IMG/VR virus record: IMGVR_UViG_3300017700_000931
Coordinates: 288,001-352,000 of that record
Length of the DNA: 64,000 nucleotides
Source: a virus
Lineage: Duplodnaviria; Caudoviricetes
Direction: 5' to 3' (one strand)
The notes under the pieces were generated by a model. The model saw nothing but the letters and a program-made list of their open reading frames with translations, made no database searches and was not told the origin of the DNA. Position 1 is the first letter of the stretch. Each line of letters opens with the position of its first letter. Of this stretch, positions 10,825 to 36,168 are shown piece after piece. A program made the translations under genes and the position numbers.

Positions 10825-10856
10825 TTTGGTAGATTGAAATATTATACATATCTTTG
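10825..10856 (+). promoter_or_regulatory. Bacteroidota-type promoter
   Basis: TTTG-N20-TATCTTTG. Confidence 0.75.
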
Positions 10857-11905: not shown

Positions 11906-12092
11906 AATATGGAGGTAGCTGAAAATCCTAGATAAGAGTAGGCAAAACAAATAAATCACATTATGAAAACTTTTTTTAAAAATGTATTTACGATTGCAAC
12001 AGGAATTATTGTTGCACTTGTAATTATAGGTGGGATTGTTGTGGCTGTCCTTTATGCTACAAATCCTAATCTAATGAATTATTAGTAAATCA

Positions 12093-12177: not shown

Positions 12178-12237
12178 TTATTTGGTAGAACCAAATAATT
12201 GTATTATCTTTGTTACATCATCAATTAAAACCAACCA
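12178..12237 (+). repeat. 60-bp promoter/leader cassette, copy 1
   Basis: 58/60 identical to 19305-19364; contains TTTG-N20-TATCTTTG and TTATTTGGT-AGA-ACCAAATAA inverted repeat. Confidence 0.85.
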
Positions 12238-19304: not shown

Positions 19305-19364
19305 TTATTTGGTAGAACCAAATAAATGTATTATCTTTGTTACATCATTAATTAAAACCAACCA
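19305..19364 (+). repeat. 60-bp promoter/leader cassette, copy 3
   Basis: 58/60 identical to 12178-12237. Confidence 0.85.
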
Positions 19365-21495: not shown

Positions 21496-22694
21496 TGGCA
21501 AAACTTACTAGTATATATAATGAATTACCTTTTGAAGAAGGTAAAACATACCAGACTAAATTTCAGACTGGTGAGAAGTTCTTGATTTCTAAAATTATTA
21601 AGTCAGGGGATAAAATTATTAGATTTGAAGGGATTTATGAAACAGCACCGCATTTAGGTCCTTGTCCATTAAATCCCGACAGATTAATTCCTGATAAGGT
21701 AAAACAATCAGAAATCTATGTTTGTGATAAATGTGGTACACCAATTGAATAATTATGGAAATTGAAATAATGAACAAGCCAATTTATGCTGTTGTTGATG
21801 CTGGAGTATTTGGTGCTAGAATTATTGCTGGTATAGTTATCGGTATTCAATTCACCAACAAGAAACCTGTATATTGTATAGGATTCGGTAAGAACTCAGT
21901 TTGGACCTCAAACATTGCACACAATAAGGAAGAATTACTAGGGTTGCTGGAAATTCCAGACCTTGATAAGGTTGCTGCCGCTGGTGCCGAAGTAAAATTT
22001 ATTCAATAATATTTTAATTAAACTTATGAACATCTTAGCCCTTGTTGTTTTTATCATCGTAATGACGTTTATCATTATCTTTTTAATTAAAGATAGAAAA
22101 GAACGATTGAAATTGACTGATGATTTTTTCAGTATTAAACGCAAATACGATTTGATTAGACATCCTGATGTATTCAGTGTTGAAAAGTTCAATAAGTGGT
22201 TTGTTAGCCCCAAGTCAAATGATATCTATGCAAATGCTGGAATTTTTGGTAGGACAGATAAATTAGGTTCGAGTCAATTTATTGATTATTTTATTTACTT
22301 AGGACTTACTAGGGCTGACGCTAAAAGTTTTTATGCTGAAAACTATAAGGTTGTGATGAAGTTTGAAAATGCTGTTCGTACAAATTGGTTACACCGCTAA
22401 TTTATGACTAACACATACGACACTAGTAAACATATTCTAGCGACACTAATCGAGATAACTTCATATCACCCATATAAAGTGGCTGATAGTGAATTCACTG
22501 AAATCCTAGAAGCTTACAATATGTCTGAAGAAGTAGTCATGGATATGATGATTAGGATGCCAGACCAATGTGGTTCATTTTCTAGAGTTGTGGATGGATT
22601 TATTTTCTTTGAAAATGATTTTGAAAGCCATTTGGATGATGAACCATTAGATTTTTTCTCTAAAAATAAAAAAGATTTGGTGGATTCAAATTAA
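21495..22694 (+). CDS. Small hypothetical genes (21495-21752, 21755-22009, 22026-22400 membrane, 22404-22694)
   Basis: Abutting ORFs. Confidence 0.6.
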
Positions 22695-22707
22695 TTCACT
22701 ATATTTG
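22676..22707 (+). promoter_or_regulatory. Bacteroidota-type promoter
   Basis: TTTG-N20-TATATTTG plus CATCATTAAAAC leader. Confidence 0.75.
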
Positions 22708-23532: not shown

Positions 23533-23564
23533 TTTGGTGAATTGAAATATTATCTCTATCTTTG
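23533..23564 (+). promoter_or_regulatory. Bacteroidota-type promoter, ATG 5 nt downstream
   Basis: TTTG-N20-TATCTTTG. Confidence 0.75.
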
Positions 23565-23569
23565 GCCCC

Positions 23570-23806
23570 ATGTCAAGAAATAAGAACCCACAATATTTGG
23601 CTGAAAAGCTAAGACGTACCAAAATACGTAAAGACAAACGTAATGACAATTACCGTCAGTGGTCTTCTAAAGCTAATGATGCTGGTAGAAATATTGCTTG
23701 TGTCAAATACCATGGTAGTTGGGATGACCCGAACTCTCCAACTGGTAGAAGTCAAATTTGTGAAATGGGCGGACATTGTGAGTCACCATGTAATGGGGAT
23801 TGTTGA
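23570..23806 (+). CDS. Small basic, Cys-rich protein
   Basis: C-terminal CEMGGHCESPCNGDC. Confidence 0.6.
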   Translation: MSRNKNPQYLAEKLRRTKIRKDKRNDNYRQWSSKANDAGRNIACVKYHGSWDDPNSPTGRSQICEMGGHCESPCNGDC

Positions 23807-23812
23807 TTATAT

Positions 23813-23870
23813 TGCGTGGTAGCTCAGTGGTAGAGCTTTTCGCCGGATGGTTCGATTCCTCCCTACGCAA
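23813..23870 (+). ncRNA. Anticodon-armless tRNA-like RNA (58 nt)
   Basis: TGCGTGG/CTACGCA-A acceptor; TA-GCTC-AGTGGTA-GAGC D-arm; only 8 nt (TTTTCGCC) before T-arm GGATGG-TTCGATT-CCTCC. Confidence 0.75.
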
Positions 23871-23886
23871 CAATTAAATTTAAACT

Positions 23887-24610
23887 ATGAAACGATTAAT
23901 TTTACTATTTACATTTTTCATCGCATTAAATGCGAATTCTCAATTAGATACGATACAGAAACCTTGTATTGCTGTCACTAATGAGACGAAAGATACACTC
24001 TATGTTGTTGTGGATATGTATACCATGTTTTTAATAATGTGGGAGAACCCAACCATTACTGATGCTAAGCCAGTAATTATACCTGTGACTTCACTTCAAT
24101 CGTATTACCGCCGAGAAGATTAATATGTTTCAACCACAACTAAAACATAAAGCCAAACATGGTAATTATAGGGATAAACCTACTAAAGGAGAGGTCCTTG
24201 GTTTGATGTCTTTATATAGTGGTGTGAGTGATATGGTTTTAAATAAAAAGCCAGTTAAAAAACAAATTGGTGTTCAACTTAGATTAGAATTTTAAATGAA
24301 AGAAAAAATAAAAAAATTCATTAATGAAACACCAAATAGTGTTCTGTTTTGGAATGCTATGTATTATGTTGTATTGATTGCATCAGCCCTTTACGATATT
24401 GATTTAATGATTTTCTTATATGGTATCAGTAGCCTTATTGCAATTGGTATTATCTACGATAAGGATGAGGAAAATCATTTGTGGACCGCAACATCCTTAC
24501 CTGTTTTATTTCTCATTGTGGTTACTGGAATTGGATTTGCTATTGGGTATCCGTTATATAAACTTATATTCTGGATAAACGACAAACTGGATGGTAAGAA
24601 GAAAAAATAG
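23887..24610 (+). CDS. Secreted small protein (23887-24123) and membrane protein (24296-24610)
   Basis: Signal peptide ..ALNANS/Q; three hydrophobic segments. Confidence 0.55.
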
Positions 24611-26418: not shown

Positions 26419-26450
26419 TTTGGTCAATTAAATTATTTGTCTTATATTTG
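26419..26450 (+). promoter_or_regulatory. Bacteroidota-type promoter
   Basis: TTTG-N20-TATATTTG. Confidence 0.75.
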
Positions 26451-35724: not shown

Positions 35725-36168
35725 CTATTTCAATTTTCTTTGTGTTTCACGTTCAATATCTTTACGTTTGATATCTTCACGTTTGTCATGTAATTTTTTA
35801 CCTTGTGCCAATGCTATTTCTAACTTAACCAAACCATTATTTGCCATGACTAATGCAACTGGTATTATGGTAATTCCTTTGGTGGTTACTGCCTTCAAAA
35901 GAGTTTTAATTTCTTTTTTCTTCAACAACAATTTCCTTTCCCTTAGTGGGTCATGATTTTGGTGTGTACCACTTTCTTTGTATTCGGCGATATGCATTCC
36001 TTTTACGTAGAGTTCTTCATCTTTAAAATAACAGTGGGCATGTGTTATATTCACGTTGCTCCTACGTATTGATTTTATTTCCGAACCTAGTAACATTATA
36101 CCAGCAGTAAAGGTTTCTAAAAACTTATACTCGAATGATGCTTTTCTATTTTTAGTTAACAATTTCAT
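35725..36168 (-). CDS. smpB: SsrA-binding protein SmpB
   Basis: NRKASFEY; GIMLLGSEIKSIR; RERKLLLKKKEI; GKKLHDKRE. Confidence 0.95.
   Translation of the reverse strand: MKLLTKNRKASFEYKFLETFTAGIMLLGSEIKSIRRSNVNITHAHCYFKDEELYVKGMHIAEYKESGTHQNHDPLRERKLLLKKKEIKTLLKAVTTKGITIIPVALVMANNGLVKLEIALAQGKKLHDKREDIKRKDIERETQRKLK

Follow-up and report, generated by a model that had tools for sequence, protein, structure and literature searches.

An anticodon-armless tRNA-like RNA and a small cysteine-rich protein gene form a conserved cassette in large phages

Introduction

In this report, we focus on a short RNA gene of a large phage (Duplodnaviria; Caudoviricetes) and on the protein gene that accompanies it. 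The DNA under study, which we will call the window, is a stretch of 64,000 nucleotides (positions 288,001 to 352,000 of IMG/VR record IMGVR_UViG_3300017700_000931), and its source genome (G000; 362.5 kb, with terminal repeats) contains 57 transfer RNA (tRNA) genes according to ARAGORN. The RNA in question is 58 nt long, displays the acceptor, D and T arms of a tRNA, and is devoid of the whole anticodon arm. Together with a small open reading frame (ORF) that ends directly upstream, it makes up a two-gene cassette that recurs in other phages, as documented by its architecture, conservation, covariation, tight linkage, copy number and a confidently predicted protein fold. From this analysis, we tentatively propose that the two products may form an RNA-protein particle acting on the tRNA-binding part of the translation apparatus, in which the co-encoded protein would stand in for the anticodon arm. 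We regard this as a plausible reading, though one that we would stop short of calling probable.

A tRNA shape without its decoding arm

The window RNA has what is expected from the upper half of a tRNA, namely a 7-bp acceptor stem, a D-arm and a T-arm together with the conserved elbow nucleotides (Table 1), while it lacks a codon-reading anticodon stem-loop with its 7-nt loop, as do all of its relatives. As read from the sequence, the anticodon stem-loop positions 27-43 are swapped for 2 nt within an 8-nt linker. An earlier reading of this DNA, made from the letters alone and hereafter called the sequence-only reading, had described a 58-nt architecture with a 7-bp acceptor, U8-A9, a D-arm, a T-loop, A73 and 8 nt in place of the anticodon arm and variable loop, all of which are indeed present, and it had rightly pointed out that there is no G3-U70 here, the pair 3:70 of the window copy being C3-G70. 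Its description of the retained elements as intact holds for the acceptor, the D-arm, the T-loop and A73, and has to be corrected for the T-stem, which is imperfect and contains a bulged U at 23848.

This RNA is easily overlooked by standard tools. The Rfam tRNA family RF00005 aligns to it with 37.7 bits (gathering score 29, E 2.7e-6), the 18 anticodon-arm positions of the model being reduced to 3 nt, but the same model used with default filters in a scan of the whole window misses it, and ARAGORN gives no call for it. Our own covariance model, R1, gives 59.1 bits for the window RNA, and no other armless copy in the genome scores highly. Folding of the window RNA by minimum free energy yields the three expected helices, at an unremarkable energy (z -0.65), so the case for this RNA rests on comparison and not on thermodynamics. 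Its CCA end is partly encoded, which means that completion by the CCA-adding enzyme would be needed. The RNA starts 6 nt past the stop codon of the small ORF (23570-23806), and the ATG of the following ORF, at 23887, lies 16 nt 3' of it.

Conservation, covariation and the possibility of a broken tRNA

The relatives of the window locus were reached by a homologue search with the downstream 241-aa ORF; a search for loci through the single flanking proteins (265 aa and 241 aa) returned none. In L048 and L054, the flanking proteins are 98% identical to those of the window and an armless tRNA is found at the same site. The L048 RNA reads UGGGAGU-UA-GCUC-AGUGGUA-GAGC-GAAAUGUC-AGAGG-UUCGAUU-CCUUU-ACUCCCG-A, and L049, whose downstream ORF is 57% identical, carries the likewise armless UGCGAGU-...-AGGAG-UUCGAUU-CUCUU-ACUCGCU-A; the stems of both differ in sequence from those of the window and yet still pair. 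The nearest relatives of the RNA itself are those of L052/L053, where the small protein is 65% identical, and of L057, from a 353-kb phage. The bulged U of the T-stem is retained in L052/L053 and in L057/L087, together with compensatory stem swaps (GAG[U]GG/CCCUC), so that it is to be seen as a trait of this subtype and not as a sign of decay. The D-stem also varies among the relatives, with the pairs of strands GCAU/GUGC (L052/L053), GCGU/GCGC and ACUC/GAGU. In L050 and L051, where the 241-aa neighbour is more distantly related, no armless element was found nearby.

Beyond these syntenic loci, a pattern search for this D-arm followed by a T-arm within 4-14 nt gave 39 viral contigs, and 48 when the D-stem was relaxed. 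Nearly all of their acceptor stems have 7 bp, with sequences that are unrelated to each other. In the 27 distinct copies found by pattern, 94.9% of the cells of the alignment pair, vs 38-53% when the partner strand is slid, and all 7 acceptor pairs vary on both sides. The 26 RNAs found through the protein behave in the same manner (96.4% of cells pairing, vs 42-64% in slid controls): 13 of the 16 pairs change on both sides, those of the D-stem included, and none of 500 shuffles reaches the observed values.

The family spans 55-62 nt, and its linker follows the formula N26, 2-3 nt, N44-N45-G46-N47-C48, in which C48, the Levitt partner of G15 that precedes the T-stem, is nearly invariant. The tRNA core is thus kept (U8, A14, G15, G18, G19, G46, C48 and the T-loop), and only positions 27-43 are replaced, by 2-3 nt. 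Judged from the alignments, the anticodon stem-loop is cleanly excised across the family with the tertiary core left in place.

These data bear on an alternative according to which the window RNA would be a decaying tRNA pseudogene, or an assembly artefact, that lost its anticodon arm by chance. The 57 ordinary tRNA genes of the genome offer a possible source for such a pseudogene, and the bulge in the T-stem speaks for it too. However, the tRNAs of the phage include no close paralogue of the window RNA, strong covariation accompanies the identical excision in over 40 independent contigs, the bulge is itself conserved with compensatory changes, and independent assemblies from different samples agree. 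We therefore regard this alternative as almost certainly wrong. An origin as a paralogue of one of the phage's own tRNAs was rejected, since none of them is close to it. The sequence-only reading had conceded that a full tRNA in close relatives would betray a recent deletion; L048, L049, L052, L054 and L057 are all armless at the syntenic site, and the armless design, conserved with covariation, speaks for an intact and selected non-decoding RNA instead of a broken tRNA. The window RNA is thus probably functional, the model for the cassette as a whole being more tentative.

An RNA gene and a protein gene that appear to travel together

The sequence-only reading had presented this RNA as stand-alone, whereas it proves to be one half of a conserved two-gene cassette, the other half being the small ORF directly upstream. 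At seven of the loci found by pattern (L017, L021, L027, L059, L062, L063 and L064), a similar ORF ends 3-11 nt ahead of the armless tRNA. The linkage was then assessed in viral loci that were fetched by the protein alone, 21 of them with an alignment of class C and 22 with one of class A (the classes are described in the next section), which were scanned with the RNA covariance model, the remainder being inspected by eye. For class A, to which the window protein belongs, an armless tRNA is present in 22/22 viral loci and starts 3-12 nt past the stop codon in 21 of these, the exception being L087, where an inserted 50-aa ORF separates the armless tRNA from the small ORF. Three class-A loci carry the GCAU/GUGC variant of the D-stem, which the covariance model scores poorly. 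Among 185,579 bacterial and archaeal genomes, the single class-A match is a 1.8-kb contig of a metagenome-assembled genome (MAG), and an armless tRNA is found there 4 nt past the stop codon, which brings the class-A total to 23/23. For class C, the RNA lies 3-10 nt downstream of the ORF in 9 loci and 8-11 nt upstream of its ATG in 5.

This last observation disposes of one candidate role. A recoding or termination signal acting in cis after the stop codon was considered as the sole function of the RNA and rejected, because the RNA precedes the ORF in five class-C loci: since either gene may come first, an effect on termination in cis alone is unlikely.

The copy number follows the same logic of a pair, with five large phage records (three complete, one at 91% and one at 40%) each having a single armless tRNA and, adjacent to it, a single strong copy of the protein. 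Within 9 kb on either side of nine cassettes, no protein family other than the small protein is common to at least three loci, and the cassette can thus be considered self-contained. When the window is compared with L048, the two DNAs are near-identical as far as about codon 25 of the small ORF, show no relation over the C-terminal half of this ORF and the RNA, and become identical again directly after A73, a pattern in which the small ORF and the RNA appear to move as one cassette.

The near-identical phages L054 (3001-3171) and L048 (2987-3163) provide a further observation: their armless tRNAs are identical while the C-termini of their small proteins differ (…CYCGDGTPYSY* vs …DCYCPYCGRGNDFYN*), so the cysteine-rich knob described below can be exchanged with no change in the RNA.

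Neither a direct DNA search of GenBank phages with the cassette region nor a tblastn search of the same phages with the class-A and class-C proteins gave any match, and there is therefore no cultured phage with the cassette to hand.

The partner protein

The window protein is made of a basic N-terminal helix (residues 7-38, with the motif Y-L-A-E-K-L-R-R-T-K-I-R-K-D-K-R) and of a C-terminal cysteine-rich knob (...SPTGxSQxC-x5-C-x3-C-x3-C, ending in SPCNGDC*). Its first 25 codons are highly conserved between L049 and the window, and 4 of the 9 differences are synonymous, which indicates coding selection on this ORF. An exhaustive profile search extended the family to 67 cluster representatives at 50% identity, almost all of 55-90 aa. 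The small ORFs found beside the armless tRNAs of the pattern search share a basic N-terminal motif of consensus MAKDK-x-E-x-EYKAEGLRR-x-x-x-RK-x-x-R, and their C-termini fall into recurrent cysteine-rich classes, each conserved through the last residue: ...SW-D-x2-SPTGYSQ-C-x5-9-C-x-S/Y-PCNGDC* in class A, ...CYCGDGTPYSY* in class B, ...CGG-x-MSWCS-x-C...CC-x-D/E-YGTC-x-CS* in class C, a CPxC...CxxC ribbon in class D and CCPCCGRG...DW* in class E.

For class A, AlphaFold2 used with a 36-sequence alignment predicts two helices, a long one (residues 7-38) and a short one, and a cysteine-rich sheet of three strands, at a mean predicted local distance difference test (pLDDT) of 87.2; the invariant residues are W51, C64, C70, P73, C74, G76 and C78. 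The class-C prediction follows the same plan (pLDDT 77.5). Searches for known relatives gave nothing: no Pfam or PHROG profile exceeded its threshold on ten neighbours and ten members of the small-protein family, the ESM Atlas returned nothing above noise for the small protein, and Foldseek found no match in the PDB for the class-A model at E <= 0.001. As ARAGORN misses the RNA genes and the ORF family has no Pfam or PHROG entry, both halves of the cassette are invisible in current phage annotation.

The class-C module also exists on N-termini other than that of the cassette protein. An example is a second protein of the source genome (about 264480-264685, minus strand, outside the window), in which it (...MNWCNTCQVYSSTCCCDYGTCQCS*) follows a Cys/His-rich N-terminus of another kind and which has no adjacent armless tRNA. 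The knob can thus be viewed as an autonomous module.

The organization of the protein invites a comparison with the precursors of ribosomally synthesized and post-translationally modified peptides (RiPPs), in which a conserved leader precedes a variable core. According to this alternative, the armless tRNA would be charged (with alanine in the RNAs that have G3.U70, with another amino acid in the window's type) and would feed a transferase off the ribosome, the cysteine-rich protein being its acceptor or scaffold. A conserved N-terminus followed by shuffled cysteine-rich C-terminal classes (...NGDC*, ...TPYSY*, ...GTCxCS*) is consistent with this view, as are the alanine identity set that we describe below in nine RNAs and the charging of anticodon-less substrates by alanyl-tRNA synthetase (AlaRS; as cited in PMC9976931) and leucyl-tRNA synthetase (LeuRS; PMC2377443). 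Against it, the structure prediction (pLDDT 87) gives a folded protein whose N-terminal part is a stable basic helix and not a disordered leader. No transferase, LanB/PEARL-like, radical S-adenosylmethionine or other maturase gene is conserved by the cassette within 9 kb on either side, where the small protein is the one shared family and the neighbours are without Pfam or PHROG matches. We consider delivery of amino acids off the ribosome improbable.

Two types of acceptor end

The acceptor ends were compared in 34 distinct RNAs linked to the protein. A73 is present in all of them, C74 in 31, and the pair G2-C71 in 32, while a full CCA is encoded in 5. They fall into two types. The alanine type (9/34) combines G3.U70 with G1-C72 in every case, and G1-C72/G3.U70 is the alanine identity set of tRNA-Ala and of transfer-messenger RNA (tmRNA). 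The initiator-like type (25/34, the window RNA included) has U1 (in rare cases C or A), a 1:72 pair that is weak or missing, and then G2-C71, S3-S70 and G4-C69. Among the 26 aligned RNAs, the pair 1:72 is indeed unpaired in 8, while pairs 2-7 always form. The alanine type is distributed unevenly among the protein classes (8/13 in class C, 1/3 in class B, 0/18 in class A), and this association of RNA type with protein class gives a Fisher p of 1.6e-4, a value that is uncorrected for shared ancestry.

The window RNA ends with U1-A72, G2-C71, C3-G70, G4-C69 and A73, which matches the end of bacterial initiator tRNAs, and the phage's own initiator-like tRNA-Met has the same acceptor end (UGCGGGG...CCCCGCU-A). 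Such positions are determinants for Met-tRNA formyltransferase and make EF-Tu and peptidyl-tRNA hydrolase reject the tRNA. The resemblance does not extend further, as the window RNA has no anticodon arm, and hence neither the CAU anticodon nor the G-C pairs of its stem, and its D-stem contains C11:G24 instead of A11:U24. Since methionyl-tRNA synthetase requires the CAU anticodon, charging of the armless RNA with methionine is not expected.

The lack of an anticodon arm is nevertheless compatible with aminoacylation by other enzymes. The LeuRS of Aquifex aeolicus charges tRNA-Leu deprived of the whole anticodon arm with a 2.5-fold loss of affinity and an unchanged kcat, a reaction that needs A73 and the tertiary core formed by U8-A14, G18-U55 and G19-C56, and it loses its editing activity on this substrate (PMC2377443). 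AlaRS charges bare acceptor helices that carry G3.U70 (Francklyn and Schimmel 1989, as cited in PMC9976931).

The acceptor end also bears on a more modest role for the RNA, that of a processing or punctuation signal whose tRNA shape would recruit RNase P and the 3' enzymes so that the transcript is cut beside the small ORF, which would set the end, the stability or the translation of the mRNA and leave the RNA as a by-product. What RNase P needs from its substrate, the acceptor/T-arm and the elbow, is indeed present. The RNA abuts the ORF on one side or the other (3-12 nt past the stop or 8-11 nt before the ATG), and no terminator separates it from the next ORF. However, processing does not require an invariant A73, C74 in nearly all RNAs, the G46/C48 contacts or the alanine set of nine members, and it would remain unexplained why this one protein family should need such a signal in every lineage. 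A role in processing alone thus seems distinctly unlikely.

Comparison with tmRNA-SmpB and with other tRNA-like RNAs

Among the closest known systems is the tRNA-like domain of tmRNA with its protein SmpB. This domain is also an upper-half tRNA (acceptor stem and T-arm) with no anticodon arm, it undergoes tRNA-style processing, and it receives alanine by virtue of G3.U70, the combination G1-C72/G2-C71/G3.U70/A73 being found in the nine members mentioned above. SmpB, a small basic protein, occupies the position that the absent arm would have (PMC3929946). The differences are nonetheless substantial: the RNAs of the family have no mRNA-like domain, tag frame or pseudoknots, they measure 55-62 nt, and they have a full 4-bp D-stem with a canonical D-loop, while the window copy has C3-G70 and its partner is unrelated to SmpB, with no Pfam match and a different predicted fold. 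The Rfam model of tmRNA (RF00023) has no match at the window RNA.

The window does encode an intact SmpB, and the sequence-only reading had suggested, as a speculation, that the armless RNA could be its partner, SmpB replacing the missing anticodon arm and bringing the RNA to stalled ribosomes. In its favour, an SmpB gene is also present in the cassette-bearing phages G001 and G004, and the alanine-type RNAs resemble the tRNA-like domain of tmRNA. The distance between this gene and the cassette is about 0.8 kb in G004, where both are on the same strand, and 8-12 kb in G001 and G000; as these genomes may share synteny, we record this proximity without leaning on it. The idea is weakened on several grounds. 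The premise of an orphan SmpB has to be rejected: a bona fide tmRNA (89.7 bits) is encoded elsewhere in the source genome, and the phage SmpB thus has its own RNA to serve. A tmRNA is also found in G001, G002 and G004, of which G001 and G004 have SmpB as well. Moreover, G002 (100% complete) and G003 (91% complete) both carry the cassette and have no SmpB. Finally, the window RNA lacks G3.U70, and its full D-stem contrasts with the reduced D-loop of tmRNA. A partnership with SmpB is therefore highly improbable in our opinion.

Other systems can be compared with the particle that we propose. Armless tRNA-Leu shares with the natural RNA the acceptor, D and T arms, the tertiary core, A73 and the absence of the anticodon arm, and the alanine mini- and microhelices share this absence, but these engineered substrates are laboratory constructs whereas the RNA described here is a conserved natural gene; tRNA-Leu also has a long variable arm, absent from the natural RNA, and the Aquifex enzyme was sensitive to how this arm is oriented. 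Y RNAs of the YrlA type are reportedly non-decoding RNAs with tRNA-like D and T arms, which occur in phages and are bound by Ro60. In these, the tRNA-like module is set on a long terminal stem that binds Ro60, while the ends of the window RNA form a plain 7-bp acceptor stem followed by A73 and C74 and enclosed between a stop codon 6 nt upstream and an ORF 16 nt downstream; the partners, Ro60 and a cysteine-rich protein of 55-90 aa, differ too, and no Y RNA family was matched in the Rfam scan at the window RNA. Species 1 and 2 of T4 (RNAC/RNAD) and the stable RNAs of T5 are tRNA-shaped, non-decoding, made beside tRNAs and of unexplained function; contrary to the present family, they are 73-144 nt long, contain inserts and show no clean loss of the anticodon arm, and are not known to be linked to a gene for a small protein. 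The mascRNA of MALAT1 and the 3' tRNA-like structures of plant viruses are likewise tRNA-shaped modules within longer transcripts, to which they attract RNase P, RNase Z and the CCA-adding enzyme as well as, for the viral ones, aminoacyl-tRNA synthetases, but they belong to eukaryotes or their viruses, keep an equivalent of the anticodon arm and have no dedicated small-protein gene.

Natural tRNAs are known to lose their D or T arm. This is the case for the armless mitochondrial tRNAs of nematodes and mites, which remain functional after the loss of whole arms and always keep the anticodon arm, since they still decode; the loss described here is the opposite one. To our knowledge, a natural conserved tRNA from which the anticodon arm is cleanly lost while the acceptor identity is intact is undescribed outside tmRNA, and our full-text literature searches returned no description of a conserved anticodon-armless tRNA or of its cassette. 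Non-decoding tRNA-like RNAs of phages are in themselves already known (the T4 and T5 stable RNAs, Y RNAs, tmRNA), and what sets this one apart is that the anticodon arm is cleanly excised, that identity features are retained, that the acceptor ends are of two types and that a small protein of a new fold is an obligatory partner.

A possible two-part tRNA substitute

We infer the transcription of the cassette, the processing, CCA addition and charging of its RNA, its binding by the protein and its target from the features presented above, and the steps of the model are to be taken as conditional. The cassette would be transcribed from its own promoter, within a polycistronic RNA, from which the enzymes that process tRNAs would excise the tRNA-shaped part (RNase P for its 5' end, trimming for its 3' end) before it is completed to CCA. 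The excised RNA would then bind the co-encoded protein, whose basic helix of about 30 residues and cysteine-rich knob would fill the place of the missing anticodon arm, in the way of SmpB with the tRNA-like domain of tmRNA. The resulting particle would act on the ribosome or on a tRNA-handling enzyme with no codon being read, and the members with G1-C72/G3.U70/A73 would be expected to be charged with alanine.

One may push this further and see the cassette as a two-part tRNA substitute, with the RNA as the upper acceptor/T/D part and the protein as the lower part (basic helix and knob), in which interchangeable classes of knobs would aim the particle, alanine-charged in some lineages and initiator-like here, at different sites. 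Such a particle might enter the ribosome in a codon-free manner, as a minimal phage analogue of tmRNA-SmpB without the message part, and accept or block nascent chains to rescue, stall or re-programme host ribosomes. In this full form the proposal is speculative and, in our view, unlikely.

Several observations weigh against the particle as we propose it. The RNA is missing from 7 of the 21 class-C loci (four distinct sequences, with perhaps a mis-called frame in L085/L086), and class-C genes with no adjacent RNA include those of L069-71, L076, L082-83 and the one at about 264.6 kb in the source genome. The correlation between RNA subtype and protein class is not strict, as the RNAs of L048 and L054 are identical and the C-termini of their proteins differ. 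The same armless design is also encountered where the small protein is lacking, in about 20 contigs 18-34 nt upstream of a gene resembling that of the small terminase subunit and in others inside tRNA arrays, which means that the RNA can work without this partner. Moreover, short spacing is in itself weak evidence in tightly packed phage genomes, and the argument for the pair rests on its recurrence.

The existence of RNAs without the partner counts in favour of a decoy. In this alternative, the processed armless tRNA would by itself bait, as a sponge, a host factor that recognizes the acceptor end or the elbow, such as a tRNA-modifying or tRNA-sensing enzyme, or a toxin of a defence system that cuts or modifies the 3' ends of tRNAs, and the protein would serve as a chaperone or have an effector role of its own; as the RNA cannot decode, it would leave translation undisturbed. 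The conservation of the elbow, the acceptor stem, A73 and C74 together with the removal of the decoding arm fits this idea, and so does the use of the same design without the small protein in other phages. It leaves unexplained, however, the 23/23 linkage with one protein family and the joint swapping of the two genes, and it squares poorly with a single copy per genome that has no obviously strong dedicated expression signal. In addition, two discrete acceptor types, alanine-like and initiator-like, look more like charging identities than like a generic bait. We thus judge that the RNA is unlikely to act as a decoy on its own, and we retain the RNA-protein particle as our tentative reading.

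Whatever its activity, the cassette is a clonable two-gene unit of about 340 bp, carried by large uncultured phages, that could show how phages use the tRNA shape beyond decoding, be it for codon-free entry into the ribosome, as a bait for tRNA-directed defences or to deliver amino acids outside the ribosome. The cassette is also relevant to the puzzle of the T4 and T5 non-decoding tRNA-like RNAs and to the minimal features of a tRNA in vivo.

Other armless and shrunken tRNA-like elements

A second armless group, of the form AUCCCCU...AGGGGAU-A, has no small cysteine-rich ORF and is located 18-34 nt upstream of a terminase-small-subunit-like gene (MMPRKPDERIIQAKELYLKG...). It is found in L012, L014-L016, L020, L023, L026, L033, L035-L037, L039, L040 and L043-L046, which are viral contigs of 20-45 kb, and shows by its setting that use of the armless design is not confined to the cassette. 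The tRNA arrays of other large phages also contain shrunken tRNA-like elements of 43-57 nt (Table 1). In G002, the cassette is itself embedded in a tRNA array, where a 50-nt tRNA-like element lies 26 nt upstream of the small ORF.

Transcription context and neighbouring features

The cassette is preceded by a promoter motif of the Bacteroidota type that ends 5 nt ahead of the ATG of the small ORF, whose mRNA would thus be nearly leaderless. No terminator is found between the RNA and the next ORF, so the RNA must be cut from a polycistronic transcript, presumably by tRNA-processing enzymes. The ORF directly downstream is syntenic in L048, L049, L054 and L057 and is not conserved in the more distant cassettes. 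The sequence-only reading had also tied the RNA to a theme of the 1.8-2.8 kb cluster of the window, a tie that our data do not bear out, as bare T-arm matches are all that is found there. An Rfam motif, RF02914, is located elsewhere in the window.

The promoter motif occurs 17 times in the window where 4.8 occurrences are expected, and none of 100 shuffles reaches 17. In 13 of these copies, a longer consensus, TTTGGTnnAnnnAAAT..TATnTTTG, is shared. The 17 sites, whose extended consensus can be written TTTGGTnGAnnnAAAT-N-TATnTTTG, are mostly on the plus strand, just upstream of ORFs.

Table 1. Location of the cassette, its parts and the other features discussed (window positions unless stated otherwise)
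Feature	Location	Strand	Basis or remark
Anticodon-armless tRNA-like RNA, 58 nt	23813-23870	+	acceptor 5' strand to discriminator A73; UGCGUGG-UA-GCUC-AGUGGUA-GAGC-UUUUCGCC-GGA[U]GG-UUCGAUU-CCUCC-CUACGCA-A
Acceptor stem, 7 bp including G6.U67	23813-23819 (UGCGUGG) x 23863-23869 (CUACGCA)	+	sequence
U8-A9	23820-23821	+	sequence
D-arm GCUC-AGUGGUA-GAGC, with A14, G15, G18, G19 and A21 kept	23822-23836	+	sequence; D-stem covaries in relatives
8-nt linker UUUUCGCC (N26, 2 nt, N44 N45 G46 N47 C48)	23837-23844	+	alignments
T-arm GGA[U]GG-UUCGAUU-CCUCC, bulged U at 23848, T-loop UUCGAUU at 23851-23857	23845-23862	+	sequence; relatives
Discriminator A73, then C74 and AA	23870 (A73), 23871 (C74), to 23873	+	sequence
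Small protein, 78 aa, class A	23570-23806	+	homologues, coding selection, AlphaFold2, one copy per genome
Cassette promoter, Bacteroidota-type (TTTG-N-TAnnTTTG), -33 TTTG / -7 TAnnTTTG	23533-23564	+	motif excess in the window
Conserved protein of 78-80 aa with an N-terminal signal-peptide-like segment	23887-24123	+	ORF directly downstream of the RNA
SmpB (PF01668), intact 148-aa open frame	35728-36156	-	181 bits; about 12 kb from the cassette
tmRNA (RF00023)	G000:C1:73052-73434, outside the window	-	89.7 bits
Further promoter motif sites (examples)	10825-10856, 12181-12212, 19308-19339, 22676-22707, 26419-26450		motif search
Isolated T-arm-like matches (GGUUCGAAUCC type) in a non-coding island at 1.8-2.8 kb	1835-1857, 2092-2114	-	no full armless tRNA of the family there
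Rfam DUF805b RNA motif (RF02914)	11909-11944	+	41.7 bits, gathering score 35.6
Shrunken tRNA-like elements	L064 (G002) 1610-1652, 4577-4626, 4935-4978	-	tRNA array
Shrunken tRNA-like elements	L056 4027-4078, 4683-4798	-	tRNA array

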